64,000 nucleotides of DNA, from NCBI GenBank assembly GCA_963847625.1, contig CAWKAR010000027.1, positions 64,001-128,000 of the forward strand, read 5' to 3'. The DNA is from a candidate division FCPU426 bacterium. GTDB taxonomy: Bacteria; Oederibacteriota; Muellerivitia; Muellerivitales; Muellerivitaceae. The translations under genes and the position numbers were made by a program. Below, piece by piece: positions 3,301-64,000 of the stretch. Within the stretch, counting starts at the first letter, position 1. Each line of letters opens with the position of its first letter. A model generated the notes under the pieces. The model was not told the origin of the DNA and did no database searches. It was given only the letters and a program-made list of their open reading frames with translations.

Positions 3301-6300
3301 GGAGTGGCGGCAGATAATAATTATGTTTATGTGACTGACCAAACCCAAAATGAAGTTTTTGTTTTTCCTACTCCTGGTGGAACCCCGATTGCGAGTTGGG
3401 GGATCATTGGAAGCCGTCCAGGAGAGTTTAATAAGCCTTCCGGTATCGCGGTCACAGTCAATACTTCCTCTGTTACTCAAGTTTATGTTGCAGATACAGG
3501 GAACCATCGAATTGAGATTTTTTCATTGGATGGCCAATGGCACGCAAGTACACCCATTGTTTGGGGAACTCCTGGAAATATAGGCCATGGAACATTCAAT
3601 ACTCCAACGGGGATAGCTTTGGATTCCCAAGGTAATATTTACGTGGCGGATTCAACCACGGGTTTAGTTCAGGTTTTCAATCCCCAAAGGGTTTTTCTTT
3701 TCCAATGGGACGCGACGATGGGATCAACAACCCCCTGCGCTGAATTTATAACTATCCAGGGTTGTCTTGTTTTTGTATCAGATGGTCCTGGAAATGGACA
3801 TGGAAATGTACGTGTTTTCCAATTGAACGGTTCACCCGTCAATTCTGTCTCACCTGTCGGTATTTACCCAGGCGGATCAGATACGGAAGGTTTAGCAATC
3901 GGACCTAATTCGGGAACCTTATATGTCGCGGATTTCAGTATTGGAAATATATCTGCATACACAAAATGTTCCTGGCCCACTTGTGTCCCGACGGTCACAC
4001 CTCCAATGACATGGAATCCTGCGACTGCGGTCCCAACGTATATTCCTTCCAATACACCAACAAACATAATTACAGTTTCGCCTACTTTTACAGGCACATT
4101 ATCGACCAACACTCCCACGCCATTTGAAACATTAACTCCAACGAATACATTCACCTATTTTCCAACAAACACGCCCATTAATACTCCCTCGCCCACACCG
4201 GTTTTATGTTCCGTCTCAATTTTTCCTTCCAGCCTGACGCCCTATCCAGTGACCCAGCCTTATGGATTGGCTAGCGATGGGACAAATATATACGTGGCCG
4301 ACCAATTCGCGAATCAAATCATTGAATTGGGTTCCTCGGGGAGTTTTATCAACGAGTTTGGATATGATGGTACAACCAATTATTTAACCGAGCCTTTGGG
4401 AGTGGCTGCGGATGGGAACGGCGTTTATGTTACGGATGAAACTCAAAATGAATTGTTCATCTTTAATACTCATGGTTCAGCGCCTAATGTGACCTATGGT
4501 AGTGAAGGAGGGGGTCTGGGCCAATTCGAATCGCCCGCCGGAATTGCTGTTACTACGGCCAATGGATCAACCACAATCTTTGTAGCGGACCAATACAATA
4601 TGCGGGTTCAGGAATTTACTTGGGCTGGCGGTTCATCCGTCCCTACCCCTGTGGCGCAGTGGGGCAGTGAGGGTATCATGGGGAACGGAACTTTCGTAGC
4701 CCCGACCGGTATTGCCATTGATAATTACTTTGGAACAGGTTACGTATTCGTATCGGATTGGGAAACGGGGTTGGTGCAAGTGTTTAATCCCTTGAACCCG
4801 CCACAGAATCAGTTCATGTGGCAATGGGACGCGACTTTAAATACCCCCCTATTAGGCGCGGAATTTATAGTGCAAAACGGTTGTTTGTTTTACGTTTCGG
4901 ATGGTTTTGGCAATATCGGCGTATTCGACTTATATGGGAATTACCAGGACGCGATCTCGGTTCCAGGTGGTTTCTACAATGTGGAAGGTCTCGCTGCGGA
5001 AGGAGGGTCCCTTTTTGCGGCCGATTACGGATTAGGCCAAATCGATCAAATACAATCTTGTTCTATCCCAACTTGTGTGCCGACCAGCTACCTATCCCGA
5101 ACCCCGACCTTTACACCCATATGGACGCCAACTAATACTCCAACACCTAATTTAACATCTGTCTGCTGTCAAGTCGCAACTGATTGGTTACCTACTCCGA
5201 CTTTCTCAACAGTTATGGGTGTGGCAGTGGATCGGTGGAGGGGTCGTGTTTATGTTGCGGATAATAATGACGGTATCTTACAGGCTATGGATTATTGGGG
5301 AAATCCCATCTCCGGTTTCGCAGGGTTAGAGAATGGCAAATTACCATTGAACAGTGCTTGGGATGTTGCGATGGGGAATTGCGGGAATGATTATGTTTAT
5401 GTTGTGACGCGAGGGGCAAGTGCTGGGGACTCGCTAAACAAATTGAATCCGTCAGGAACACCCGTCGCAACAGCTGTCCTTGGTTCAACAGGCCCTAGAG
5501 CCTTAAATGTGGATAACAATGGAAATGCCTATATTGCAACAGACCAGAACAACATACAAATTTTTAATTCCAATTTAACGCCAGTAGCTACTATCGGCCC
5601 AAACATGGGTAGCTTGGGATCTTTAAGTGCACCATCAGGTTTGGTAAAGTTGGGTCCTAATTTGTATGTTTCAGATACCATGAATAATCGGGTTGTCTTA
5701 TTCCCGGAAACAACACCCAATACCAATATTTATGGGACGCCGACCCCGATTGCGACGATTGGTTATCCATGTGGATTAACCGCGGACTTAAATGGAAATT
5801 TTTACGTGACTACCGATCAGCAAGGGGTCAATGGTTATGATATTTATGATTCGGGATTTAATTTTAAAAGCGCTTGCGCCAATTCACAGATAGTATGGCC
5901 CTTTGGAATCGGAGTCGATGAAAATGGTGCGGCTTATGTGGGTGCGGGAGTCAATGGCGTTGTAAAAATGAAGCCTTGTTATATCCAGTCTCCCGTGCCG
6001 ACTTGTACGACCATTCCTACCAGGACCTATACATCCACACCCACCCCCACGAACATCCTTTATCCCTGCGCCGTATCTTTTACTTTCCCCGCGGGTTACC
6101 CGGAAGGTGTAGCTATGGATAATGCCGGGAGCATTTATGTGGCCGATGAGGACGCGGGCGTAGTGGATGTTTACAACCCCAATTGGAGCTCTACCATGCA
6201 GATAGGCGCCGGTTATTTAACCCAGCCTTTTGGGGTGGCCCTTGATGGAGCGGGCAATATCTATGTCACGGATGTGGCCCAGAAAATGGCATATGAATTC

Positions 6301-8709
6301 GACCTCCATGGTGCGCTTATAACGGAATGGTCTTTACCCGGAACACCAGGAGGGATCGCTGTCTATTCGCCTAATCAATATGTCTATATTGTGGATCAAG
6401 ACCATCAGGAAGTTGATTGGTATGAATTTATCGGTGGCCAATTTGAACTACAAAATTATTGGAATGGAACAGACGGCTCGAATGGAAGTAATGGAAGCCA
6501 TGGACAACGATTTGTTAATCCTGAGGGGGTTGCTGCTAGTTATGATCCTAATGATTTAAGCCACAGTTATGTTTATGTATCAGACTGGGGGACTGGGTTG
6601 GTCCAGGCTTATAATGATTCTGGATCACTATGGGTTGGCAGTTGGGATGTAACTAAGGATCCCAATACTGGTACACCAACCGGTCTATTGGGAGCCAATT
6701 TCATTGGCCTATATAAGAATTGTTTGGCTTATGTCTCGGATGGTTATGGATCAGTAGGATTTTTCCAAATATCTTTTACAGGCAACTCCTTAAATCCCCC
6801 GTTAAATAAAGGAACAAATCAAGGCCCATTTTATGATACCGAAGGGATTGGTGTTGGGAACGGAACTTGGGCAGTGGCCGATATTCACAATGATATGACA
6901 GGACAAGTGGATGCTTTTGGCCCCTGTCCTAATGTCTGTTGGTCTCCAACAAACACGCCCACCAACACACCAACTTGGACAACTGCCTATACTCACACGC
7001 CGACCTATACGTTCACATATACCCAGACCTATACGTATACTTACACATATACCTATACCTGCCCACCTACTGCGCCCCCCAATATTGTTTGGAGCACTCC
7101 AACCCCTCAATGTTGTCAAATCGCGAGCGAATGGGTACCAACCCCGGTATTCAATACTGTTAATGGTGTGGCAGTAGACCGATGGAGGGGCCGCGTTTAT
7201 GTAGCAGATAAGAATGATGGTATCGTTCAGGCCATGAATTATACGGGAAAACCAGTCAATTCTTTTGGCGGGGTAGGGACGGCATTATTACCGAATGCTT
7301 GGGATGTTGCCATGGGGAACTGTGGGAATGACTTTGTTTATGCTGTGACGCGGGCAGGCACTGGGAGTTCGTTAAATAAATTTAATCCTGCTGGAACACC
7401 TGTCGCAACAGTTGGCATTGCAACCAACACCAGGGCCATAAATGTGGATATTAATGGAAACGCCTATGTTGCGGCAGATGATAGCGTTATAAGAATTTTC
7501 AACTCTAGCTTAACACCAGTAGCTACTCTTGGTCCTAACATGGGTTGCTTGGGGTCTTTATACTTACCTTCAGGTTTGATGAAGGTTGGGTCCAACTTAT
7601 ACGTTTCAGATACGAATAATAATCGAATTGTTGTGTTCCCGGAAACAACACCAAACACCAATATTTATGGTACGCCGACCCCGGTTGCGGCGGTTGGATA
7701 TCCTTATGAAATGACTACGGATTTGAACGGGAATATTTATTTGGTTTCTCAAGGTTTAGGTGGCTATGCAATATTTAACCCGTCGCTTACATCGAATATA
7801 ACGACCTGCGATAATGGATATACAGGGGGATCATGGGGGATTGCTGTTGATGAAAAAGGCGCGGTTTATTTGGGAGTCGCGGGATCAAGCAGTGTCGTAA
7901 AAATGCAGCCTTGTATTTCAAGCCAGTCTCCCGTGCCTTCTTGCACCCACATCCCAACCAGGACACCAACACCTATTAATACGCCAACTTGGACTTACAC
8001 ATATACGCCGAATAATACGAACACGCATTCGCCTACCCCTAATACGCCGACTAAGACACCGACACCCACATACACGTATACACCGAACAAGACGACTACC
8101 CATTCGCCTACCCCTAATACGCCGACTAAGACACCGACACCCACATACACGTATACACCGAACAAGACGACTACCCATTCGCCTACCCCTAATACGCCGA
8201 CTAAGACACCGACACCCACATACACGTATACACCGAACAAGACGACTACCCATTCGCCTACCCCTAATACGCCGACCCGGACGCCTACACCCACATTCAC
8301 GTTTACATATACGCCGACCAAGGGGACTACCCCTGGAATAGCGGCACAGGGGAATGAGAAAGAAATGATGTTGGTAAAGGGGTGCTCATCATCGACTCCA
8401 ACTCCCGCGATGGAAGGGATATTGGGAAAAGTCATAGCGGCACCGAGCATATCCAGGGGCGGGGAAGCGGTACAAATTCGGTTCATCCTGGGGCATGCGG
8501 CGAAGGTGACGCTAAAGATTTACACAGTAGCGGGAAGATTGGTTTACGAGAAACAAGCGCTAAGTTCTGTCGGTTCCAACAAACTGGCATGGCAAGTGGA
8601 AAATCAGCGGAACCAGATTGTGGCCAACGGACTTTATTTTTACATGTTGCAAGCTGAGGCGGAAAATAGCATCGTTCGCAAAACAGGCAAGATAATTGTT
8701 TTGCGTTGA
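331..8709 (+). CDS. Giant secreted NHL-repeat (multi beta-propeller) protein with Thr/Pro linkers and C-terminal sorting-like domain
   Basis: GAAGGAG RBS; hydrophobic N-terminal signal; many GVAVDSQGNLWVADxxNNRV / PxGIAxD repeats; C-terminus ...VANGLYFY...GKIIVLR. Confidence 0.85.
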   Translation: MNRNLDIDCSQYLIRGAVFMAALLFLLCSQPGKGWAQYLDVPALTPNPNYKFPPRGISGDLWADLVLGQTDIGNISPNQATSNTVWSAGGVVVDAPHNILYTFDGSNNRVLGVVNISEAHSNFGPSDPPCTATILIGQPDFTHTGCNWDANFQDYPNPTQPTSFCLCVMPQNDNSVAESFPTANLAVDSSGDLYVPDYSNNRVLRYDFNDLQPALTPGAVVTKPGASHVWGQGPVGNEFFTSLINLGGSAPTSYSLSFHGVAGYDYNVTTAGVAVDSQGNLWVADLGNNRVLRFPGSGSCCVAPSNGADLVLGQSNFNLNVQAGNVDDTLHMSRPVAVRVDSAGNVYVADNPPAPGEPNGAAGRILVYEATPAVTPAQYTYASSPSATLNAYFLAPKALEWDVQNGVTDGLWVSDYQEQQVVLLPVSTSNPSNFLPASKVLLRDVPWIATTTPTQPPSNFTCSGVSITYSYPVGNLQSSCSGVPYGVGVDQNGNVYVGFSQYSNTDVWRFPNATPIPNPTPGSSWSADLAVFKPAQYRMVNKMGLGNFTGESATYGIAVADHFTSSPQIIAADVNRLLFWNIPPGGVTDKTNLYNGKNADGVAGNLLGAETFKVGTKAFGRMRTDDAIVAAMTPTPNFTPIPHLWTCRVDNGTLEVYQLPLQPYATPIATIAPPIAVLGSSNLLTWDKLVGIAVDPQLNIWVSDNTNSRILHIRNPLTSNPVVDIILGQNSASATQINQGQGEYKASASSLFSAQEIAMDHHGDLFVCDFNQESSGNGRILRFDKATIQNNSNKNALFGIPASAVFGRNGNFSTGFGDCLPNPTGNTNMEVCHVGSLAFNQDDSLMVVGENGYSSNWFPVVFTNPTLPQTVLTSTGQDWPVTYLQDFYSGPTAITFDKDGNLFVGDYQRSRLLAYYHPFPSPTPTLTPTLGVNPMCTPTPNWVNNIKPYGIAANNSYIYEADQTSDCVNVFPQGSGTGSQICNNNLKKPFGVAADNNYVYVTDQTQNEVFVFPTPGGTPIASWGIIGSRPGEFNKPSGIAVTVNTSSVTQVYVADTGNHRIEIFSLDGQWHASTPIVWGTPGNIGHGTFNTPTGIALDSQGNIYVADSTTGLVQVFNPQRVFLFQWDATMGSTTPCAEFITIQGCLVFVSDGPGNGHGNVRVFQLNGSPVNSVSPVGIYPGGSDTEGLAIGPNSGTLYVADFSIGNISAYTKCSWPTCVPTVTPPMTWNPATAVPTYIPSNTPTNIITVSPTFTGTLSTNTPTPFETLTPTNTFTYFPTNTPINTPSPTPVLCSVSIFPSSLTPYPVTQPYGLASDGTNIYVADQFANQIIELGSSGSFINEFGYDGTTNYLTEPLGVAADGNGVYVTDETQNELFIFNTHGSAPNVTYGSEGGGLGQFESPAGIAVTTANGSTTIFVADQYNMRVQEFTWAGGSSVPTPVAQWGSEGIMGNGTFVAPTGIAIDNYFGTGYVFVSDWETGLVQVFNPLNPPQNQFMWQWDATLNTPLLGAEFIVQNGCLFYVSDGFGNIGVFDLYGNYQDAISVPGGFYNVEGLAAEGGSLFAADYGLGQIDQIQSCSIPTCVPTSYLSRTPTFTPIWTPTNTPTPNLTSVCCQVATDWLPTPTFSTVMGVAVDRWRGRVYVADNNDGILQAMDYWGNPISGFAGLENGKLPLNSAWDVAMGNCGNDYVYVVTRGASAGDSLNKLNPSGTPVATAVLGSTGPRALNVDNNGNAYIATDQNNIQIFNSNLTPVATIGPNMGSLGSLSAPSGLVKLGPNLYVSDTMNNRVVLFPETTPNTNIYGTPTPIATIGYPCGLTADLNGNFYVTTDQQGVNGYDIYDSGFNFKSACANSQIVWPFGIGVDENGAAYVGAGVNGVVKMKPCYIQSPVPTCTTIPTRTYTSTPTPTNILYPCAVSFTFPAGYPEGVAMDNAGSIYVADEDAGVVDVYNPNWSSTMQIGAGYLTQPFGVALDGAGNIYVTDVAQKMAYEFDLHGALITEWSLPGTPGGIAVYSPNQYVYIVDQDHQEVDWYEFIGGQFELQNYWNGTDGSNGSNGSHGQRFVNPEGVAASYDPNDLSHSYVYVSDWGTGLVQAYNDSGSLWVGSWDVTKDPNTGTPTGLLGANFIGLYKNCLAYVSDGYGSVGFFQISFTGNSLNPPLNKGTNQGPFYDTEGIGVGNGTWAVADIHNDMTGQVDAFGPCPNVCWSPTNTPTNTPTWTTAYTHTPTYTFTYTQTYTYTYTYTYTCPPTAPPNIVWSTPTPQCCQIASEWVPTPVFNTVNGVAVDRWRGRVYVADKNDGIVQAMNYTGKPVNSFGGVGTALLPNAWDVAMGNCGNDFVYAVTRAGTGSSLNKFNPAGTPVATVGIATNTRAINVDINGNAYVAADDSVIRIFNSSLTPVATLGPNMGCLGSLYLPSGLMKVGSNLYVSDTNNNRIVVFPETTPNTNIYGTPTPVAAVGYPYEMTTDLNGNIYLVSQGLGGYAIFNPSLTSNITTCDNGYTGGSWGIAVDEKGAVYLGVAGSSSVVKMQPCISSQSPVPSCTHIPTRTPTPINTPTWTYTYTPNNTNTHSPTPNTPTKTPTPTYTYTPNKTTTHSPTPNTPTKTPTPTYTYTPNKTTTHSPTPNTPTKTPTPTYTYTPNKTTTHSPTPNTPTRTPTPTFTFTYTPTKGTTPGIAAQGNEKEMMLVKGCSSSTPTPAMEGILGKVIAAPSISRGGEAVQIRFILGHAAKVTLKIYTVAGRLVYEKQALSSVGSNKLAWQVENQRNQIVANGLYFYMLQAEAENSIVRKTGKIIVLR
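8026..8275 (+). repeat. 75-bp (25-aa) exact tandem repeat, about 3.3 copies
   Basis: cattcgcctacccctaat recurs at 8026, 8101, 8176 and 8251. Confidence 0.9.
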
Positions 8710-52581: not shown

Positions 52582-53636
52582 GCCGAATTCACGGAGTAAG
52601 TGCAACACTTCGCCGGAAGACTTCCGCCGGAGTTTTAAAGCCCAAACATTTCCTGGGTCTGTTATTGAGCCATCTTTCTATGGCCCTGAATTTTTTGAAG
52701 GACACTTTAGCAAGATCAGTCTTTTTAGGCAAATGGCGGCGGACAAGACCGATAGTATTTTCCACAGTACCTTTTTCCCAACTGTGGAAAGGGGCGCAGA
52801 AAAAGGATTTTGTACCAAGCACGTGGTTGGTTTCCAAGTGGTTGGTGTTTTCGGTTCCGTTGTCATAGGTCAGACTCAAGCGGGCGTCTTGAGGGAAGCG
52901 GCATAAAGCGCGGTTGAGGCTATGACTCATTTGGCGAGCGGTCTTTCGTTTGAGCTTTCCCAACTTGGAAAAACGGCTTTGACGCTCGACGAGAGCCCGC
53001 ATAGCCACTTTACTCTGACGAGAGACCATGGTGTCGGTTTCCCAATGGCCGAATTGCTTGCGTTGATTGGCGATCTCGGAGCGCTTATCGATGGAAACAC
53101 GGCCTGGGATATGGTTTTTGGCGTGCTTACGGCTGTGGCCAAATGAGAATCGTCGCCGGTGGTGTCGAACTAGGCAAGGAATCAGCTCAGTGGCTTCAGC
53201 GTAAACCCACTGATAGATAGCTTCAGGACCAATGGTTTGCTTAGGCCGTAGGTGACCTAATCGACCTGAAATGAGTTCTGGAGACCAGCCTCGTTTCAAT
53301 TGACGACGGACGTAGGCACGAATTCGTTTTGTTTTCAGGCGTAAACGGCGTGCTCGTTGTTGGTTGCGGTCAACATACCGTTGATGGGCTCGATGAGAAA
53401 GATAATAACCAGAACGGATAGGGGGAGCATTGCGCTTGAGTTCCCTGGAGAGGGTGGAAGGAGACCTCTTCAAGGCGCGTGAAATTGCTCGAAGGCTAAG
53501 ACCCTTTCCTTTCAAGACGGATAAATGATCTCTTTCTTCAACGCTTAAATGCTTGTATTTCTTTTTCATAGCCGCATATCCTATTCATGCGGCCTTCTTC
53601 AGACACTAAGTGTTGCACTTACTTATGGAACTCGGG
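52582..53636 (-). mobile_element. IS30-family insertion sequence (1055 bp)
   Basis: Imperfect IRs CCGAATTCACGGAGTAAGTGCAACACTT / AAGTGTTGCACTTACTTATGGAACTCGG; ATG duplicated at 52579-52581 and 53637-53639. Confidence 0.92.
52589..53569 (-). CDS. IS30-family transposase
   Basis: HLSVEER HTH, WSPELISG, GHWETDT, TYDNGTE, SWEKGTVEN, LNNRPRKCLGFKTP. Confidence 0.95.
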   Translation of the reverse strand: MKKKYKHLSVEERDHLSVLKGKGLSLRAISRALKRSPSTLSRELKRNAPPIRSGYYLSHRAHQRYVDRNQQRARRLRLKTKRIRAYVRRQLKRGWSPELISGRLGHLRPKQTIGPEAIYQWVYAEATELIPCLVRHHRRRFSFGHSRKHAKNHIPGRVSIDKRSEIANQRKQFGHWETDTMVSRQSKVAMRALVERQSRFSKLGKLKRKTARQMSHSLNRALCRFPQDARLSLTYDNGTENTNHLETNHVLGTKSFFCAPFHSWEKGTVENTIGLVRRHLPKKTDLAKVSFKKFRAIERWLNNRPRKCLGFKTPAEVFRRSVALTP

Positions 53637-55077: not shown

Positions 55078-57105
55078 ATGTCCTTTCTAGCTTCCGCCGT
55101 TCTTTTGGGGCAAACGATCGGGTTCACGGTTGATCCCACGCAAAACAACAGCCCCATTTCCCCCTATAGTTACGGTTCCAACAGCCCCGTCCCCCTGGTG
55201 AATAATATTCCCCTCTACCGCCAGGGCGGCAACCGGCTAACGGCCTATAACTGGGAAAACAACGCCTCCAACGCGGGCATGGATTACGGCCCCAACCACG
55301 AGGACTGGTACCTGCTCGCCGTCATGGGGCTCCCGCAAAACGGCGGCCAAATGCCCGCCACGGTCTTAACCGATTTTATCCTGGGCAATAACGCCGTCAC
55401 GGCCGCTTCCCTGGTCACCCTGCAAATGGCGGGTTACGTCTCGGCCGACGGCGACTGCAACTGCGACGTGACCGTCACCGGGGCGGCGGACGCCAGCGGA
55501 ACCTATTGGAAGGCGGTGAGTTTTTCCGGAGGCCCCACATCGGGGGCCCCGGTCACCACCGACCACGTTGTCTACATGGACGAGGAAATGTATTACCTTT
55601 TGGGCGCCGTGGGGGGGGCCTCCTCGGGCGGGGCCAAGCTTTACGACCTGGATAATGAGCCGGGCCTTTGGAAAAGCACCCATCCCCTGGTGCATCCGGC
55701 CCAGGCCGCCTGCACCGAAGTGGCCGGGAAAGGGGCCAGCCTGGCCGCGGTGATCACTTCCATCGATCCCAACGCCCAAGTCATGGGGCCTGTTTGTTAT
55801 GGCTGGCAGGAATACGTGAACAACCAAAGCGCGCCGGACGTTAATCCCACCTTGAATAGCTACGCTAGCAACGCCAATAAAGTCGCCTACCTGGATTACT
55901 ACCTGGCCGCGATGAGCTCCGCGTCGAGCGCCGCGGGCCGGAGGCTTTTGCATTACCTGGACCTGCACTGGTACCCGGAAGCCACGGGTTTGGATGGAAC
56001 CAACGCCGTGCGCATCACCAATGACGACGTCAGCCAGGGGGTGGCCATCGCCCGCATGCAGGCGCCCCGGTCCCTTTGGGACCCCAGTTACGTTGAATCC
56101 AGCTGGATTACCGCCAATTCCCTCGGCGGCAAGCCGATCACCCTCATCCCCCGGCTCCAGGCGGCGGTGGCCCAATACTATCCAGGCACCCAGCTTTCCA
56201 TATCGGAGTACCAGTACGGGTCCGGCGAGGATATTTCGGGCGGGATCGCCCAGGCGGACGCGCTGGGTATCTTCGGTAAATACGGCGTGGCGGGCTGCCG
56301 GTGGGACGACGGCACGAGCGACCTTTATGTGGCGGCCGCCTACAACCTGTACTTGAATTACGATGGGAAGGGTTCCCGGTTCGGGGATACGTCCATCCTG
56401 GCCGGCTCCTCCGGCGCCAACGCGGTATCCTTGACTTCCGTTTATGCCGCCAAGGACAGCGCCCATCCCAACCGGATCAACGTCATTCTTTTGAACAAGG
56501 ACTACGGCGCCAATCACGCGGCGGCGGTGACCCTGAATAACCTCGGCATGACCCAAATTTCATCCATCACGTCCTACCGTTTCGACTCAACCGCCTCGAC
56601 CGCCTACAACCCGGCCGCGCCCGCCTTTACCGCCGGCACTTTTTCGGACACCCTCCCGTTCCGCTCGGCCACCCTTTACGAGATTATCCTGGCCCAGGCC
56701 CCCACCGCCACGCCAACCAACAGCCCCACGCCTTGCACGGACGGTTCGGGGAACACCTGCACTTTTACCCCCACCCCCACGGCCACGGACACCCCCACCC
56801 CCACCGCCACTCCCAACCCCAATAACGACATCGCCTGGCCAAACCCCTGGAACGGGAGCGCCCCCCTGGCCTTTTACCACACGCTGAACCAGGCGGCGGA
56901 TTCGGTGCGCCTAAAACTTTACACCGTGGCGTTCCGAAAAGTTTACGAGAACGACCATTTGGCGGCTACGGCGGGCCAGCACCTTTACACCCTGGGATGG
57001 AACCAACTCGGCAACATCGCCAACGGGCTTTACTACCTGGTGGTGGAGGAAGTCAGGGGCGGGCGGGAAACCCACAAGGTCATGAAGCTTTTGATCCTCC
57101 GTTGA
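55078..57105 (+). CDS. Glycoside hydrolase family 44 (endoglucanase/xyloglucanase) + short Thr/Pro linker + sorting-like CTD
   Basis: RQGGNRLTAYNWENNASNAG, LDNEPGLW..TH..VHP, DLHWYPEA, ISEYQYG, QADALGIFG; C-terminus WPNP...ANGLYY...KLLILR. Confidence 0.9.
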   Translation: MSFLASAVLLGQTIGFTVDPTQNNSPISPYSYGSNSPVPLVNNIPLYRQGGNRLTAYNWENNASNAGMDYGPNHEDWYLLAVMGLPQNGGQMPATVLTDFILGNNAVTAASLVTLQMAGYVSADGDCNCDVTVTGAADASGTYWKAVSFSGGPTSGAPVTTDHVVYMDEEMYYLLGAVGGASSGGAKLYDLDNEPGLWKSTHPLVHPAQAACTEVAGKGASLAAVITSIDPNAQVMGPVCYGWQEYVNNQSAPDVNPTLNSYASNANKVAYLDYYLAAMSSASSAAGRRLLHYLDLHWYPEATGLDGTNAVRITNDDVSQGVAIARMQAPRSLWDPSYVESSWITANSLGGKPITLIPRLQAAVAQYYPGTQLSISEYQYGSGEDISGGIAQADALGIFGKYGVAGCRWDDGTSDLYVAAAYNLYLNYDGKGSRFGDTSILAGSSGANAVSLTSVYAAKDSAHPNRINVILLNKDYGANHAAAVTLNNLGMTQISSITSYRFDSTASTAYNPAAPAFTAGTFSDTLPFRSATLYEIILAQAPTATPTNSPTPCTDGSGNTCTFTPTPTATDTPTPTATPNPNNDIAWPNPWNGSAPLAFYHTLNQAADSVRLKLYTVAFRKVYENDHLAATAGQHLYTLGWNQLGNIANGLYYLVVEEVRGGRETHKVMKLLILR

Positions 57106-57234: not shown

Positions 57235-57337
57235 ATTTCCGGGTTTTTAAATGGATTACTTTCGATTATTCCAAAGAGCTAAAATAAAGCCGTATTAATA
57301 GTTTCGATAGAGGGCGGTTCGAATCCCATTCGGCCAG
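57235..57337 (+). repeat. Repeat A, copy 1 (103 bp), ending in a tRNA-like 3' fragment and the GGCCAG core
   Basis: 4 mismatches versus 59339-59441; ends GGTTCGAATCCCATTCGGCCAG. Confidence 0.9.
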
Positions 57338-57355
57338 GGTTCAAAGGAAAATTTT

Positions 57356-58378
57356 ATGCGAACAAAATTAATTATTTTTCTATTAATTATACTATTTAAT
57401 AATTCGGCAGAAGCATTGGCCTGGTTAGTACCCTTATTGAACAAGAATGAAAAACTGTCGGAAAAATTTTTTATTTATAAACCCTTTTTTGATATCAAAA
57501 AAATTTCTATTAATTGTATTGAAAATGACGATATTTTGGATTTATTGGAGGAAGTAAAGGGTGTGAGTACGAATAGTTACAAGTCAATAAACGATTTAGA
57601 AAAGTTAGGATTTAAACTAAATATAGTTATAAGCCACTATGACAAAGAATGGTTAAAAGAAGCTTATGGAAATGAGTTTTTACAAAATCATTATGGGAAT
57701 AATTGGTTAGAAAAAAGTGATGATGATTTACCAGTTACAGAGGTTCACTATTTAAATGAAATTGTAATGGATGATTACAAAAGATTTGTTCTAGTTTGTT
57801 CGGGCGAAACATATTTATATTTAATAGATACTCAATCAAAACCGATTAAGACTTGGCTTCTTGATGAAAATTGCACATGTCCAAATAAAATCGATAAGGT
57901 TCTTAAACGAAATGAAGAAAGTTTTAGATTTATTTACCGAGAATTTCCTGGCAATGGCCGTTTGGCAGGCGCTCCAAGGGTAGAGGTGAAAGACATAGAT
58001 TTTAATAAAAAAATACTGGCTCAAATAAAAGGCAATTATTTAGAGGATATTAATAAGGACGGAAATCCAGAAGTCATAATTTCCAATGAACTTGATTTCA
58101 ATATTAATTGGTATTGGATATTTAGATATGAAAACGGGGAATGGGTTGAGAGTAGTAATAGATATCCAGAATATTACAAAAGCGCCGTTAAAAATATTTT
58201 GGAAGAACAATATGAAAGTACAAAAAAAACATATATTGAATTGAAAAATAACTCTCATTCAAAATCAGTTTCTAGTCTTGAATACCGGATGAAAGAATTA
58301 TTCGCTTTAATTGAAATTGCCAAATTTGGCGGAATTTCTGAGTATTTAAAGAAATTTCATGCAGGGGAGACGTTTTAA
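57356..58378 (+). CDS. AT-rich hypothetical secreted protein (cassette 1 cargo)
   Basis: 340-aa ORF; signal-like N-terminus; DINKDGNPEVII loop. Confidence 0.75.
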   Translation: MRTKLIIFLLIILFNNSAEALAWLVPLLNKNEKLSEKFFIYKPFFDIKKISINCIENDDILDLLEEVKGVSTNSYKSINDLEKLGFKLNIVISHYDKEWLKEAYGNEFLQNHYGNNWLEKSDDDLPVTEVHYLNEIVMDDYKRFVLVCSGETYLYLIDTQSKPIKTWLLDENCTCPNKIDKVLKRNEESFRFIYREFPGNGRLAGAPRVEVKDIDFNKKILAQIKGNYLEDINKDGNPEVIISNELDFNINWYWIFRYENGEWVESSNRYPEYYKSAVKNILEEQYESTKKTYIELKNNSHSKSVSSLEYRMKELFALIEIAKFGGISEYLKKFHAGETF

Positions 58379-58529
58379 TAGTTGGAAAAAGGGAATTCAG
58401 GGGGAACTTTAGGGGAACCCTTCGAGGGCCTCAGGGCAAGCTTTTCGGGAGTAAACGGGGAAAGTAGAGCCCCTCACACCGCAGCGAGTGGCAGGGCTTC
58501 GAGAGCCTCAGGGCAGGCTATTAAAGAGT

Positions 58530-58601
58530 GGGAAAGCCCTGTATTAGTTGAGTTCTAAATGCATCCATGAAGGGCAGCCAATAAAACCTAGTCTCCCTTT
58601 C
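58530..58601 (+). repeat. Repeat B|Y junction, copy 1
   Basis: GGGAAAGCCCTGTATTAGTTGAGTTCTAAATGCATCCATGAAGGGCAG|CCAATAAAACCTAGTCTCCCTTTC. Confidence 0.85.
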
Positions 58602-58706
58602 GCTCACGGGAAATGTGATCTATCGGGCCATGTGGTTGATGCTCTCATGATGGCACTGCCACACGCTGCGGTGCGTGGGGCCGTGGGGTTATAAAAAACG
58701 GAGCAA

Positions 58707-58991
58707 TCAAGAATGGTGGGGGATCCGGCCGTCGGCGACCTTGTGAAGCACGCTGGCGATGAAGGTTTGGTAGGGCATGCCCTCCTCCATGGCCTTGAGT
58801 TGAATGGCCTTCAGGTCGTATTCGGACAGGCGAATGTTGATGCGGCGGTTTTTCTTGAGGGTTTCCCGCGCGTAAGCCTCGTATTTTTTCCTCTCGCCCG
58901 GCAGGTTTTTAACGCTTTTGAACTTGCCCGCCTCATAGGAGCCCAGAAGGTCCTGTTCTTCCCAGGTTAACTTATCTTTCACGGGTTTCAC
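58707..58991 (-). CDS. Antitoxin, CopG/RHH-like
   Basis: RRINIRLSEYDLKAIQLKAMEEGMPYQTFIASVLHK; overlaps the end of the toxin gene. Confidence 0.8.
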   Translation of the reverse strand: MKPVKDKLTWEEQDLLGSYEAGKFKSVKNLPGERKKYEAYARETLKKNRRINIRLSEYDLKAIQLKAMEEGMPYQTFIASVLHKVADGRIPHHS

Positions 58992-59262
58992 CTCTTTTCA
59001 AGTATTTCTGCGCTGCTTTCCGGCTCGGGATGACCGTGATCAACCTGATGCCGTCCCCTTTTTCCTCGAAGGGAACCAAAAAGACATACTCAAAAGCTTT
59101 TACCACCATGACTTTTTGCCCTGGATATTTGCTTGGATTGGGATGGACGAGGACGTCCAACAAACCCCCGGATTGAACGCTCCAAAGAATGGCTTCGAAA
59201 GAGATGTTCCTTTCCCGGATGAGCTTTTCGTTTTTCAGGGGATCCCAGCTGAAAAAGGGCAT
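58972..59262 (-). CDS. BrnT-like type II toxin
   Basis: FSWDPLKNEKLIRERNISFE, HPNPSKYPGQ, YVFLVPFEE, LITVIPSRKA. Confidence 0.82.
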   Translation of the reverse strand: MPFFSWDPLKNEKLIRERNISFEAILWSVQSGGLLDVLVHPNPSKYPGQKVMVVKAFEYVFLVPFEEKGDGIRLITVIPSRKAAQKYLKRGETRER

Positions 59263-59338
59263 GAACCAATAATAGCCTAATGTGTGCCTTTTGGCAACAG
59301 GGCCTAAGCTTGAATGGCCCGTGCAAAAAAGGGGTCGG

Positions 59339-59455
59339 ATTTCCGGGTTTTTAAATGGAATACTTTCGATTATTCCAAAGAGCTAAAATAAAGCCATATT
59401 AATAGTTTCGATAGAGGGTGGTTCGAATCCCATCCGGCCAGAGTTCTAGCTGTCC
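59339..59455 (+). repeat. Repeat A, copy 2, plus X end (A|X junction)
   Basis: ...GGTTCGAATCCCATCCGGCCAG|AGTTCTAGCTGTCC. Confidence 0.9.
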
Positions 59456-59515
59456 GCCAAGGGGAGGGAAAGAAAGAAAATTCTGATTTTTTTGGATGAT
59501 TTTGGAGAATCAAAT

Positions 59516-60163
59516 ATGCAAAAAAACCACCTGAATATTATTTATATGATTGTAGGATTCTTTTTGGTTCTGGCCGTTGCTTCTTTTATTTCGCGCGACA
59601 ATAAAAATAGGTTTTCCCCCCAAATTGATAATATGCCTGAAAGCACCCCAGATATTTTCGGGGTCAATTTTGATAAACGCTACGGTTTACCGGATGGTGT
59701 TGGCCTTAGTGCGCTTTCACCTGAATTAGCAGATGATGTACCTTCCTCTGAACCATTAACAATGGTGACCCTAAAAAACGGGAAGGCTGCTTTAGCAGAC
59801 AAAGAGGGGAAAATCGTCTTAAAAACCAATTACGATTGGATTGGAAAATTCCATGACGGCTTGGCATTGGTGAAGATAGAAGGTGATGAGGATTATGGTG
59901 GCCCCCATCCAAATTCTTGGGGATATATCAACGTGAAAGGTAAAGTCGTTATCCCTTTTCAATTTAATCAAGCATATCCTTTTTCAGAAGGCTTGGCGCC
60001 AATTCAGGATAAACATGGTAGGTATGGTTTTACTGATATACACGGAAAAATGGTTATTCAACCACAATATGACGATTTCATGGAATTCTCAGATGGTCAG
60101 AACCAGGTTAAGCTAAATAAAGTTTGGATATGGATAAACAAAAAAGGTGAAAGAATCCAATAA
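59516..60163 (+). CDS. WG-repeat (KWG Leptospira-type) membrane-anchored protein (cassette 2 cargo)
   Basis: N-terminal TM; FHDGLALV, WGYINVKGKVVIPFQF..AYPFSEGLA, YGFTDIHGKMVIQPQYD. Confidence 0.88.
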   Translation: MQKNHLNIIYMIVGFFLVLAVASFISRDNKNRFSPQIDNMPESTPDIFGVNFDKRYGLPDGVGLSALSPELADDVPSSEPLTMVTLKNGKAALADKEGKIVLKTNYDWIGKFHDGLALVKIEGDEDYGGPHPNSWGYINVKGKVVIPFQFNQAYPFSEGLAPIQDKHGRYGFTDIHGKMVIQPQYDDFMEFSDGQNQVKLNKVWIWINKKGERIQ

Positions 60164-60314
60164 TAATTAAATCAATGATTGATTTTTGATTTGGCCATGA
60201 TGTGGAGCCATTTCAAAAGTGGGAAAAGGGGAATTTGGGGGAACTTTCGTGGAGCCCCTCGCACCGCAGCGAGTGGCAGGGCTTCGAGAGCCTCAGGGCA
60301 GGCTATTAAAGAAT

Positions 60315-60376
60315 GGGAAACCTCTATATTAGTTGAGTTCTAAATGTGTCCATGAAGGCCAGGGCTCTAGCTGTCC
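60315..60376 (+). repeat. Repeat B|X junction (tandem cassette junction)
   Basis: GGGAAACCTCTATATTAGTTGAGTTCTAAATGTGTCCATGAAGGCCAG|GGCTCTAGCTGTCC. Confidence 0.85.
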
Positions 60377-60446
60377 ACTATGGGGACCCGGAGTGGACAA
60401 GGTGGAAGAAATGCAAAAAGCAATGGCCAAAAGGGAGTGACAATAA

Positions 60447-60701
60447 ATGAGTGTTCAACTCCGAATAAAAAATAAAAAAAAATCCTTTCATCAATGGTTT
60501 TTAGCCGGCTTTATAATTACCCCGGCATGGGGATTTTTTGTTCATAAAATAGCCAATTTTTATTTAGATGATCTCCCAAAAGGTGGTTTCCAGAGGGCTA
60601 AAGAACTCGGAATAGAAATCGCAATCTGGGGTCCATTTGCAGTTTGGTTAGTCCTCTTCTTCATACATCGTAAAAATAAACTACCTAAAAATGGTGGTTA
60701 A
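60447..60701 (+). CDS. Small two-TM membrane protein (cassette 3 cargo)
   Basis: AGGGAG RBS; two hydrophobic segments. Confidence 0.55.
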   Translation: MSVQLRIKNKKKSFHQWFLAGFIITPAWGFFVHKIANFYLDDLPKGGFQRAKELGIEIAIWGPFAVWLVLFFIHRKNKLPKNGG

Positions 60702-61769
60702 TTAGTTTGTTGGTTATTGGTTGTCCATTCCGGGGAGGCATTTCATAACAGAAGAAATTTGAAAAAAAGATAAGAGATTTTGACTTCTCCTTAAGTTTAT
60801 AAATGCTTTTAAGTAATTACGCAAATAAAGGCCGGAAATGGGAATTTTCTTTTTATTTCTTTTCGTATTAATGATTACCCTTTTACCTGTTGTCGGCGCT
60901 TTTTTGTCTATTTCTTGCAAGAAAAAATTATTTATCATTTTGGGTTATGTATTAACCGCGATTATTTTTGGTGGTCTTATTAAGTTGTTAGGGGGTATTT
61001 CAGACAAGGCCGGAATAGTTCTTTCGTTTGGTTTCATCTTATTAATTTTTTACGGGTTTTATTTAAAAGAGAAATATAAAAAATTTAAGTATTTAGGCAT
61101 TTTATTGATTGTCTTGAGTTGGATCATTGGGTCTTTCAATATCATTGGCATTGTTATATTTACTCCCGAAAATCCAAATATATTAAATTTGGCCAATAAA
61201 CCCACGGTCGGAACAATTAAAGTAAAAAACATTAACCCATTTTTTAAATCATATCCCCCCGAAAAAAGAGAATTATTAGAAAAATATTTATCCCGAAGTA
61301 AAGATTGGCAATTAACCCGGTTGGGATCAATGAACCCACTTGGCGGGGCTTTGGTTGCTTTAAAACGTGTTTCTGGAAACCCGATGAATTTAGATGTTCT
61401 GGATAATTTTGGATATACGTTTAGAACAGGCTTGAGAGATGGTGAACCTTTCGAAGAAAAAACAATGGTTTGCTTTGAGCCGATAAATTTTAACGATTCA
61501 TGGCGAAAGGATGGATTTGTAAATAATTGTTATGATTCGATTTTTAAAATTAACCAATACACTGGATTCAAGGGGGAAGAGTACGAATATTTCATTTTAA
61601 AGTTTAATAATTTTTCCTTTGAGGCTTTTGAGCGGGGAAGTGGTATAGGATATATTCAATCCGCATTGGATAATTTTAAAGAAATCTTAGAAAAAGTATC
61701 AAAAGTTTCTAATATAAACGATAAAGAAATAGAAAATTCTTTAATATCTGATGAATCAATAAAAATTTT

Positions 61770-63091
61770 CACTAGTGTCCGGTTAACGATCTTCCAAAAA
61801 CTCTAAAAGCCTTTGCCTGTAATCTGTTCCATGCCTAAACGACCTTTTTCGATTTGAACTGAATCGTCCTGCCTCACCATCCTTTCATCCAAGAAAGGGT
61901 GGTTCCTTATGAATGCCGGACGTACTGTTTTTGCTCAGTTGATGGACTTCTTTCCCCGCCATGAGTTTCAGAAATGCGTTGATCGCTACCACGGCAACCG
62001 TAGGATCCGCAGCTTCTCCTGTCTCGATCAATTCCTCTGCATGGTTTTCGCCCAGCTTACCTACCGGGAAGGTCTCCGCGACATTGAAGCCTGTCTGGGT
62101 TCCTTCAAAAACAAACTTTACCACGTAGGTATCCGTGGACGGGTCGCCAGGGCTACACTGGCTGACGCCAACCAAAAGCGAGATTGGCGTATCTACGCCG
62201 ACTTCGCCCAAGTCCTGATCAAAACCGCCCAATCCCTTTACACCAATGACGATTTTAGCGTGGACTTGAACCAAGCCGCCTATGCCTTGGACTCCACCAT
62301 CATCGACCTATGCCTATCGCTCTTTCCTTGGGCGCGCTTTCGGTCCACGAAATCAGGCGTCAAACTACACACCCTTCTCAACCTCAGAAGCAACATTCCC
62401 GCTTTTGCCTGTGTTTCCAACGCTTCCGTGCATGACGTACATTTGCTGGACATCCTACCCTTGGAACCAGGCTCCTTCTACATGCTCGACCGTGGCTACA
62501 CGGATTTCAGCAGATTGAACCGCCTCATCGAAAACCTTTCCTTCTTTGTCATACGTGCCAAGTCCAATTTTAACTTCTATCGGCGATATTCCGCCCCTGT
62601 GAATTTATCTCTGGGCCTTCGGTTCGACCAGACTGTCGTCTTGGCCGATCCGAATAAGTTCAAGGAATATCCTCATCCCCTACGCCGCATCGGCTTCGTT
62701 GACCCCATCACCCGTAAGCGCTTGGTTTTTCTTACCAATAACTTCGTCTTACCAGCTTTGACCATCTGTCAACTCTACAAATCTAGATGGCAAGTCGAAC
62801 TCTTCTTCAAGTGGATCAAACAGCATCTTCGCATCAAAGCTTTCTTTGGCACATCATCCAATGCCGTCAAAACCCAAATTTGGATCGCTATTTGCGTGTA
62901 TGTCTTAGTCGCCATCGTCAAGAAAAAACTCGGCCTTCAATTAAGCCTTTACACAATCCTACAGATTTTGAGCGTCACCCTTTTTGAGAAAACCCCTATA
63001 CTACAAGCGTTTTCAGACGACGCCTGCATTTCAGAAAACACCAACACTGAAAACCAATTGTCTTTACTGCGTTTTTAACCGGACACTTGTG
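61770..63091 (+). mobile_element. IS4-family insertion sequence (1322 bp)
   Basis: 17-bp IRs CACTAGTGTCCGGTTAA / TTAACCGGACACTTGTG; 9-bp TSD AAAAATTTT at 61761-61769 and 63092-63100. Confidence 0.95.
61909..63078 (+). CDS. IS4-family transposase (DUF4372 + DDE)
   Basis: QFLCMVFAQLTYREGLRDI, LDSTIIDLC, GVKLHTLL, DRGY, YKSRWQVELFFKWIKQHL. Confidence 0.95.
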   Translation: MNAGRTVFAQLMDFFPRHEFQKCVDRYHGNRRIRSFSCLDQFLCMVFAQLTYREGLRDIEACLGSFKNKLYHVGIRGRVARATLADANQKRDWRIYADFAQVLIKTAQSLYTNDDFSVDLNQAAYALDSTIIDLCLSLFPWARFRSTKSGVKLHTLLNLRSNIPAFACVSNASVHDVHLLDILPLEPGSFYMLDRGYTDFSRLNRLIENLSFFVIRAKSNFNFYRRYSAPVNLSLGLRFDQTVVLADPNKFKEYPHPLRRIGFVDPITRKRLVFLTNNFVLPALTICQLYKSRWQVELFFKWIKQHLRIKAFFGTSSNAVKTQIWIAICVYVLVAIVKKKLGLQLSLYTILQILSVTLFEKTPILQAFSDDACISENTNTENQLSLLRF

Positions 63092-63669
63092 AAAAATTTT
63101 AAATAAACCTACCATCAAAATAATTCAGGCATTCCCTCCGGGAAGATTTATTGTTTCAGGTTATATAAATCCTGGGAAAGAAGGCTACATAAAATTACGA
63201 GTTACTAATTCTACCGACGGAAAACCCGCTGAAATTTCTAGTCGTAGCGACTTTGGAATTAGGATCGAATATGTCGGATGGTCAAAGAATATAAATGAAA
63301 AATATTATTATGAAACCGGCATCGAAATAAAAAACTATAAACAACCTTTAATGTTTAACGTAATGTTTTTTCCAACAGATGGAACGGCTGAAACGTCACT
63401 TGTTCAGATGAAATATACATTTGACCAAAAAAATATGACTTGGACCAAGAAAAAAATAATGCAGAAATATTAAAAAAATAAGGCGACATATCAATGGTTA
63501 ATTCAAAGCAAGTTTGTATAGAGTTGGGAAAATTTCCTTGATATATAACCTTCTTATTTGCCACTAATGGTGGGTTGCTCTTAATTTTATTTAGCAAATT
63601 CTAGGTGAAATGTTCGCAAACCCTTGAATCCGGAGAGCCGCCTTTAAAAGTGGAATGGGGAAACTATGC

Positions 63670-63741
63670 GGGAAACCCCTGTATTAGAAAAGTTCTAAAT
63701 GTGTCCATGAAGGCCAGCCACTAAAACCTAGTCTCCCTTTC
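63670..63741 (+). repeat. Repeat B|Y junction, copy 2
   Basis: GGGAAACCCCTGTATTAGAAAAGTTCTAAATGTGTCCATGAAGGCCAG|CCACTAAAACCTAGTCTCCCTTTC. Confidence 0.85.
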
Positions 63742-63759
63742 AGGGAGCTGGTTTTTTTT
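63728..63759 (+). terminator. Intrinsic terminator following CCA
   Basis: CTCCCT-TTC-AGGGAG hairpin followed by CTGG and a T8 run. Confidence 0.7.
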
Positions 63760-63789
63760 ATTTGAAGTCACACCTGTCCAAAATAGGCT

Positions 63790-63887
63790 TTTGCCACGGA
63801 TGCATGGGATACATGGGATTTAAAAAACATAAGTTTAAAGCCTTTTTTTATGTTCTATCCGAGTGCATCCCCTGAATCCGTGGCAAA
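63790..63887. repeat. REP-like long inverted repeat
   Basis: TTTGCCACGGATGCATGGGATACATGGGAT ... ATCCGAGTGCATCCCCTGAATCCGTGGCAAA. Confidence 0.75.
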
Positions 63888-64000
63888 GGACTTGGTTTTG
63901 CTTAACGCCTTTTAGAATTAAAAACTTCTGATTTAATTTATCTTTGTTCCCTGGTTTTTGTTTAATTTGGACGGCAATGATTTGAAGTCAAGGATTTGAA

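Follow-up and report, generated by a model that had tools for sequence, protein, structure and literature searches.

The textbook example of a gene-capture platform is the integron, which depends on a single tyrosine integrase. Large serine integrases, such as those of LI/A118 and SPbeta, are built from a catalytic, a recombinase and a zinc-ribbon domain and cross over at a two-base centre, with the outer, zinc-ribbon motif lying 5 bp nearer to this centre in attB than in attP and with products that are hybrids of the two sites (as set out in PMC11722253 and PMC5499577). Here we analyse a 64,000-nt stretch of the genome of a candidate division FCPU426 bacterium (assembly GCA_963847625.1, contig CAWKAR010000027.1, positions 64,001 to 128,000 of the forward strand; “the window” below is this whole 64-kb stretch, and bare coordinates, on the plus strand unless marked, refer to it), in which a series of gene-carrying units is joined in a manner that is alike in these respects. 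We read the locus, with a probability of about 0.6, as a stack of such units in which the outer joints have the layout of a large serine integrase that targets tRNA-Gln and the cargo is bounded by an inner 28-bp site that would belong to a shortened relative of this enzyme, both enzymes probably acting in trans. Compared with the large serine integrases of those accounts, the target here is either the acceptor end of tRNA-Gln or a mimic that stands on its own, the units are devoid of an enzyme, and there is a paralog lacking the zinc ribbon and coiled coil together with a symmetric 28-bp site in dozens of copies. Throughout, G000 denotes the genome that holds the window, and G, C and L numbers denote the genomes, contigs and loci compared.

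Five junctions in the window share the core GG(C/G)CAG (57332, 58572, 59436, 60357 and 63712); two further GGGCAG hexamers, at 58511 and 60296, lie inside another repeat and form no junctions. Two kinds of arm stand to the left of the core: A1 (57235..57337) and A2 (59339..59441) share 99 of the 103 bases that lead up to the core, and the three 48-nt B arms (B1, 58530..58577; B2, 60315..60362; B3, 63670..63717) agree pairwise at 41–43 positions. To the right stand either X, whose copies at 59442 and 60363 are identical at 19 of 25 positions and whose copy at 57338 has decayed to 9 of 25, or Y (Y1, 58578..58601; Y2, 63718..63756), which starts with CCA and is conserved at 23 of 24. A|X and B|Y joints thus occur twice each, and B|X once. 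A first-pass annotation, made from the letters of the window, had described the five junctions, the order of their arms, the 103-bp A arm, the Y arm and the degenerate first X, and all of these were borne out; its B arm of about 48 bp is likewise real, with the repeat that it ends reaching some 100–200 bp further left. The 64 kb contain three B-like arms and two A-like ends, and none of 100 dinucleotide shuffles gave even one of either kind. The three units are AT-rich, as had been claimed of their cargo genes, with a guanine-plus-cytosine content of 33–40% against 53.5% upstream and 51.9% in the genome. The prediction that the breakpoints would be fixed at the core also held, since the arms recur elsewhere and are broken at the same place.

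The central CA of the core (57335-57336 in A1, 58575-58576 in B1, 59439-59440 in A2, 60360-60361 in B2 and 63715-63716 in B3) corresponds to the CA at the 3' end of tRNA-Gln (CCAG|CCA). The A arm ends in a T-loop followed by CCAG, spaced as in tRNA-Gln, and the last 22 nt of A1 mimic the T-arm and acceptor end of this tRNA; Y1 is identical at 20 of 24 positions to the 3' flank of the genome's own tRNA-Gln(ctg). A complete cloverleaf is absent from A, as ARAGORN found no tRNA gene in the window. The motif GTTC(G/T)AA starts 18 bp to the left of the CA in A1, A2 and tRNA-Gln itself, and 23 bp to the left of it in B1–B3. Because this -18/-23 spacing matches the 5-bp shift described above, we take A as an attB arm and B as an attP arm, which makes A|X an attL, B|Y an attR and B|X an attP; the zinc ribbon would then be what binds the GTTC(G/T)AA motif. 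On the strength of their sequence, the five joints match what would be docking sites of a tRNA-targeting serine integrase. The earlier idea of one system with an unspecified enzyme gives way here to joints with the attP/attB geometry of a tRNA-Gln large serine integrase, and to cargo bounded by a second, GA-centred site. At C28 of G000 a tRNA-Gln(ctg)|Y-like flank stands unfilled, and the B|X joint is present in the chromosome.

The B arm is spread through the family. A pattern search gave 34 distinct rows, which by our own reading comprise 28 genuine ones in seven genomes, one uncertain and five due to chance; the genuine rows are conserved up to the core and diverge after it, with C/G-CAG kept in 20 of the 28. 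Units of 86 bp that end in a B arm directly follow complete tRNA-Gln genes at two loci in G011 and one in G009, and a locus of the same design, with an A arm, one AT-rich gene and a B arm, occurs in another genus (G015:C208). G015 (C314, C57, C208, C42, C83 and C116; L136, L137, L350, L355, L357 and L358) has few palindromes of the kind described below. Its CA-centred arms, at least eight of type B and four of type A, lie behind the ends of genes, a number of them in tandem, and the genome perhaps has a CA-centred cassette system of its own. Small-repeat families also lie behind several tRNA genes of G000 (e.g., C28:157600-157700 and C27:262850-263200) and at 63742-63900 of the window; many of the repeats open with an inverted T-loop and close with a 3' fragment of a tRNA, and they may spread tRNA-like target sites.

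The first-pass annotation judged the units to be non-autonomous and cassette-like, with an enzyme acting in trans, and in this it was right: outside the window, at G000:C39:128109-129629, an open frame of 507 aa contains the PF00239 (Resolvase), PF07508 (Recombinase) and PF13408 (zinc ribbon) domains. This gene ends in a 3' fragment of tRNA-Gln(ttg) and is accompanied by related cargo and by a worn B remnant 9 kb away. It is 98% identical to a 510-aa gene at G001:C6, where the order is tRNA-Gln(ctg), the convergent large serine recombinase, cargo, a B'|X-adaptor-B segment, an 86-bp unit ending in B, and a Y-type hairpin; the last codons of the 510-aa gene are the opposite strand of the tRNA-Gln. 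A recombinase beside some copies of the arms, which the same annotation had proposed to look for, is found in these two places, and the units themselves carry none. In 38 of 80 metagenome loci encoding a close homolog, the end of the gene lies opposite a tRNA, which is that for Asn in 26 cases, Gln in 10, Ser in 1 and Arg in 1. Further pieces of serine integrases and GA-centred, tRNA-Asn-type arms occur in G000 (C57:9-1136, C57:9276, C40:61389, C40:61881, the end of C24 and the start of C63), several of them at contig ends.

The second layer is defined by a 28-bp palindrome of the form TGTCCAC-N3-GGG-GA-CCC-N3-GTGGACA. X, which had been taken for a right arm, is a linker of 23 nt between the CA centre and a GA centre, and it closes with the left half of this previously unnoticed site. 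A perfect copy (13+GA+13) lies at 60372..60399, with GA at 60385-60386; the linker following A2 (59441..59478) ends in a worn left half, with GA at 59464-59465. At the ends of all three window cargos stand worn GA-centred hybrid sites with weak left arms. H1 (58354..58381; GA 58367-58368) overlaps the gene end and is read from its position and right arm; H2 (60192..60219; GA 60205-60206) combines a worn left half with a right arm that opens the long B segment; and H3 (63622..63649; GA 63635-63636) closes the last cargo. Unit 1, from core to core (57337..58576), accordingly consists of the decayed X linker, a 340-aa gene, the worn GA site and the long B arm, and the segment 60207..60384, composed of the long B segment with its B2 arm and the X linker, is what we term an adaptor.

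A scan of G000 allowing up to five mismatches gave 51 palindrome rows, mostly in co-oriented clusters with a gene behind each site. The palindrome is present in 27 of the 30 other genomes of the family and in the one genome of the order, and in none of 67 other genomes of the phylum, the reversed control giving no matches. Among the matches listed, one palindrome record is titled Candidatus Firestonebacteria, the others being uncultured or unclassified; viral contigs gave no exact match. When copies are chosen by their outer arms alone, the GA centre is found in 208 of 219, and one 8-bp centre is common to 163 of these 219. Neighbouring palindromes within 6 kb are direct repeats, and hence co-oriented, in 159 of 160 pairs. 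They delimit 152 distinct cassettes with a median length of 876 bp. In twelve pairs the cassettes are related along most of their length while the flanks outside them are not (identity 0.17–0.45), three of the twelve being copies of a group II intron. One 115-aa cassette has the same protein ends in G000 as in G026, yet its neighbours differ at both of its sites. The CA and GA layers are physically linked: CA+23 nt+GA linkers occur six times, five in G000 and one in G026, and cargo-free X-GA-B adaptors occur at C27:262692-262843, at C21:61900-61750 and at G001:C6. In the C21 case the B|X joint has a GA site on one side and a worn palindrome on the other, and both A and Y are missing.

Several observations adjoin this layer. 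At G000 C3:167707-166815 (minus strand), an A' arm, a 23-nt linker, a palindrome, a 216-aa gene, a GA site and the start of a long B follow one another, which is a further loaded adaptor at a tRNA-Gln-like arm. Three group II intron reverse transcriptases (RVT_1 and GIIM domains) lie a few bases behind palindromes in G026:C5 (L133:16258-17844; L134:826-2412 and 5926-7512), resembling in this the introns that target attC sites, and a possible intron follows a palindrome left half beside the short enzyme in G018 (L101). A tRNA|X junction was also sought and set aside, with exact core+X matches in G000 alone and the remainder at control level across the 31 genomes.

The candidate enzyme of the inner layer is a 276-aa serine recombinase (G000:C61:35485-36312) that comprises the catalytic and recombinase domains only, ends after the latter without a zinc ribbon or coiled coil, and is convergent on the last site of the C61 array. 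Nineteen protein clusters at 70–100% identity are all 275–283 aa long and devoid of PF13408, the next matches being at 60% identity or below. In 10 of 14 loci encoding the short enzyme (a sample that includes broken copies) the palindrome follows 9–35 nt after the stop codon in convergent orientation; in one more it overlaps the gene end and in another it is lost to a contig end. In a quick tree of 81 rows, the nine short rows form one clade (Shimodaira–Hasegawa-like approximate likelihood-ratio support, SH-aLRT, of 100) within a clade of support 99 that comprises the family's Gln, Ser and Asn integrases; the grouping of the short clade with the GA-type Asn integrases reaches a support of only 90 in this tree. 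The nearest solved structures by sequence are serine recombinases, the TP901-1 and SPbeta integrases among them. An AlphaFold model of the short enzyme reached a mean predicted local distance difference test score of 61 and a predicted template-modelling score of 0.39. At L102 and L103 (G026:C8 and G025:C17) an ArdC-like anti-restriction gene and the short recombinase are arranged divergently, which suggests that its platform derived from a mobile element.

The origin of the palindrome may be read from tRNA-Asn, which ends in GGG-GA-GCCA. At C27:279844-279921 a unit of 62 bp comes after a tRNA-Asn 3' fragment. The unit closes with a -23 arm, and in this arm the inner 13 nt are the left half of the palindrome with its GA centre. 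The left half equals an inner attP arm. Since this arm holds both the left half and the centre, the palindrome would be a symmetrised inner attP arm, and a site of this kind would fit an enzyme that had lost the domain for the outer motif. Deletion of the coiled coil makes the LI integrase promiscuous and inefficient, according to PMC5499577.

From these elements the following mechanism may be proposed. The serine recombinase without a zinc ribbon would bind the 13-bp palindrome halves and cross over at GA; lacking the coiled coil, it would both insert cassettes and excise them, with no control of direction, and the asymmetry of the GA would keep the cassettes co-oriented. The adaptor of about 150 bp (X, GA site and long B) would take up cassettes by means of this short enzyme and could itself enter a GA site, as it appears to have done at C21, giving rise to internal B|X joints. 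The full-length integrase would then recombine the B|X of an adaptor, as attP, with A|Y or tRNA-Gln|Y, as attB, to yield A|X and B|Y. The order seen in the window could arise from attP x attB steps alone, if a unit with several B|X joints entered A|Y and the first B|X later took up a toxin-antitoxin circle bearing an A|Y joint. For the toxin-antitoxin piece, such a circle and DNA lying between two separately filled copies of A|Y fit equally well.

As a broader scenario, a tRNA-targeting large serine integrase, through loss of the zinc ribbon and coiled coil and symmetrisation of its attP arm, might have given rise to a serine-recombinase equivalent of the integron, with dozens of cassettes per genome across the family, the adaptors coupling the two systems so that cassettes of the short enzyme are docked at tRNA-Gln-like sites by the ancestral enzyme; we regard the odds of this as roughly even. 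With respect to classification, the outer layer is a variant of the large-serine-integrase elements, and for the inner layer and its coupling no family is known to us.

A number of results weigh against the two-enzyme reading. The empty A|Y sites that the first-pass annotation had proposed to look for were found neither in G000 nor in the 30 other family genomes, and the synteny of the flanking genes revealed an unfilled locus in no relative: the homologs of the upstream glycoside hydrolase in G026 and G011 have other neighbours, as does the G001 homolog of the downstream gene. No circle was seen, the public contigs not covering the units; five public runs held 0.07–0.20 of the words, the long pieces lying mainly over the IS4 element described below. 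In G015 the A-type arm is identical at four unlinked loci with unrelated flanks on both sides, which favours the view that A behaves there as an element-borne sequence rather than as a chromosomal target. Of the seven genomes with B arms, just two yielded the Gln-type integrase, and whereas the palindrome occurs in 28 of 31 genomes, the short enzyme was found in 7 of them (genomes 63–99% complete). The metagenome loci show no enrichment of the -23 motif (four matches on the tRNA strand versus seven on the other), and L206 and L153/L157 are therefore single cases; likewise it is kept in just 8 of 256 palindromes (0–3 at other offsets). Exact X is confined to G000 in a core+X search of the 31 genomes, with two-mismatch matches at control level, and X is not an inverted copy of B (5–9 of 25 positions). 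One of the 14 short-enzyme loci has its site 111 nt away and reversed, and another has none that scored. As reported in PMC5499577, intermolecular integration by a real integrase that lacks its coiled coil is inefficient. Of the window's cargo, the WG-repeat gene and the cargo of unit 3 were searched for and were not found as cassettes elsewhere. A joint of 60235-63658 in one public contig (depth 2.2) links two copies of the long B repeat and was not taken as evidence.

These points have to be set against the alternatives. A single enzyme might insert B|X circles at A|Y and re-enter the product sites to form tandems, the palindrome being merely part of the X arm. Five junctions with one core and mixed arms would be expected from this, as would the tandem B-ended units lacking palindromes behind tRNA-Gln and in G015. 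What makes it unlikely is that the palindrome forms a cassette site in its own right throughout the genome and has both a centre and a neighbouring enzyme of its own, that the C21 joint lacks both A and Y, and that, as described in PMC5499577, reuse of attL and attR is blocked in wild-type serine integrases. Tandem integration, by which the first-pass annotation had explained the B|X joint, is one way to obtain it and is not required, since a B|X adaptor stands alone in the GA-site array at C21.

It is also improbable that all CA and GA sites are worn copies of one cassette site, served by the short recombinase alone, with the tRNA likeness merely inherited. The inner 13 nt of B do match the left half of the window's palindrome at 9 of 13 positions, and in G015 the A and B arms follow gene ends as cassette sites do, no Gln-type integrase having been found there; the -18/-23 spacing and the 507-aa integrase are points that we read instead as marks of a separate outer layer. 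A very unlikely explanation is that the arms are regulatory sites or repeats akin to repetitive extragenic palindromic (REP) elements or miniature inverted-repeat transposable elements (MITEs), shuffled into a mosaic by chance and homologous recombination. Small repeats and insertion sequence (IS) copies are abundant in the genome, and A and the long B overlap such repeats in part, but the breaks fall on one dinucleotide across seven genomes, shared cassettes change neighbours at the site, and the 2–6 shared bases are too few for homologous recombination. Terminal inverted repeats are absent from the X..B units (5–9 of 25 end matches), which excludes the arms as IS or MITE ends, and a match to such ends is what the first-pass annotation had named as fatal to its proposal; inverted ends with a target duplication belong only to the IS4 element in unit 3. 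Least probable of all is a dif-like target of a tyrosine recombinase (XerC/D or one of the 18 PF00589 matches in the genome), to which the 28 bp, readable as 11+6+11, might point, because the pdif sites of PMC13141974 alternate in orientation and vary in their 6-bp spacers whereas direct pairs make up 159 of 160 here and a single 8-bp centre is common to 163 of 219 copies, because the arms are unlike the XerC/D arms tabulated in that source, and because the site-adjacent gene encodes a serine recombinase. Three tyrosine recombinase matches lie in a row at G000 C20:38873-41282; we take these to resemble recombinase-in-trio (RIT) elements.

Returning to the reading in which a full-length integrase and a shortened relative act on separate sites, its inner layer resembles integrons and clusters of attC sites lacking integron integrases (CALINs), as presented in PMC4889954, in its co-oriented, mostly single-gene accessory cassettes (toxin-antitoxin, glyoxalase, GNAT and unknown genes), in that many cassettes lie far from the enzyme and in that the terminal site adjoins the recombinase gene. 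In contrast to the integrons of that account, the site here is a short, sequence-conserved palindrome and the enzyme a serine recombinase converging on the array. The locus has the co-oriented, exchangeable cassettes of an integron, in view of the 159 direct pairs and the 12 related pairs with unrelated flanks. It is not an integron, because no IntI passes the cut-off (TIGR02249 reaches at best 45 bits against a cut-off of 265 in G000, which is 94% complete) and, in agreement with the first-pass annotation, no attC is discernible: no pair of the consensus boxes RYYYAAC..GTTRRRY occurs within 160 nt of the five junctions, and no Rfam family matches there.

By profile, both enzymes are weakly similar to CcrB of the staphylococcal cassette chromosome (SCC) elements (E-values 6e-20 and 4e-30, far below the cut-off) and are not members of that group, and the target differs from that of CcrA/B/C. 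SCC elements stack in tandem, and we know of no inner cassette site in them. Tycheposons (bioRxiv 10.1101/2020.12.28.424599) share the repeated integration at tRNA genes that leaves partial tRNAs, and a minority of them (27 of 937) use a large serine recombinase; unlike this locus they carry their own integrase, and the cited account, in the part bearing on these features, describes no inner cassette site or adaptor. The Acinetobacter pdif modules of PMC13141974 are alike in having 28-bp sites that bound small accessory modules shuffled in trans, and as described there are unlike the locus in their alternating orientation, variable 6-bp spacers and use of XerC/D. In the titles and abstract openings of the literature searched, no serine-recombinase cassette array or 28-bp site of this kind is described, the supplements of integrase surveys, which possibly list such att sites, being outside this coverage.

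What the locus contributes is the attB/attP geometry of the CA joints, an identified integrase in trans, a fixed CA-to-GA linker and, as read here, the attP-arm origin of the palindrome. If a second, serine-recombinase platform is real, cassette capture evolved twice, and the origin of this one is testable in that the locus keeps intermediate forms (attB mimic, attP arm, linker and symmetric site). Tools based on attC or IntI would miss such arrays. The 276-aa enzyme with its 28-bp symmetric site and the 507-aa relative targeting a tRNA end would make a compact pair for DNA assembly, and one suited to asking what the zinc ribbon and coiled coil contribute to direction control.

The cargo is varied. 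The 340-aa AT-rich frame of unit 1 (57356..58378) has no Pfam or NCBIfam family. Between Y1 and A2 lies a toxin-antitoxin pair on the minus strand (58707..59262), with a BrnT-like toxin (a weak Pfam match below the cut-off) and a CopG/BrnA-like antitoxin. The second unit carries a gene for a 223-aa WG-repeat protein (59492..60163; PF14903, E 6.6e-29), a homolog of which, at 71% identity and without an upstream site, occurs in G015, the one hit in 30 family genomes. The third unit contains an 84-aa frame without a family (60447..60701) and a split gene, also without a family (60838..63473), whose 322-aa and 126-aa frames flank an IS4-family element (61770..63091; NF033592 over the cut-off) with 27-nt inverted ends and a 9-bp target duplication (61761-61769 and 63092-63100); homologs of the cargo of this unit were found in none of the 30 family genomes. 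The first-pass annotation had placed the third unit at 60363-63717 and overlooked the element that disrupts its gene. Its description of the cargo as envelope proteins is borne out only in part, by the one WG-repeat protein, the other cargo having no Pfam or NCBIfam match.

The neighbourhood is rich in further repeats. A promoter scan gave 12 sites versus 17 in shuffled sequence, none of them at A or X. The left part of A is a repeat of about 70 bp that ends in TAAAAT and has no sigma-70 match (57235-57300 and 59339-59404); other copies lie at G000 C3:122131, C13:10807, C19:137363, C20:69923 and C45:10405, those on C3 and C13 preceding palindromes. Two other repeats of the genome, at 58591-58681, interrupt the hairpin of Y1, one shared with C27:278397, 180569 and 231065, the second a 29-nt element that also occurs inverted within the long B segments (58469 and 60254). 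Y2 has an intact terminator-like hairpin, and the repeat behind it (63742-63900) is present in many copies genome-wide. The locus is bordered by a gene for a GH44 glycoside hydrolase (55078-57105), and an IS30-like transposase (HTH_38 and rve domains) at 52589-53569 has many copies near cassette arrays.

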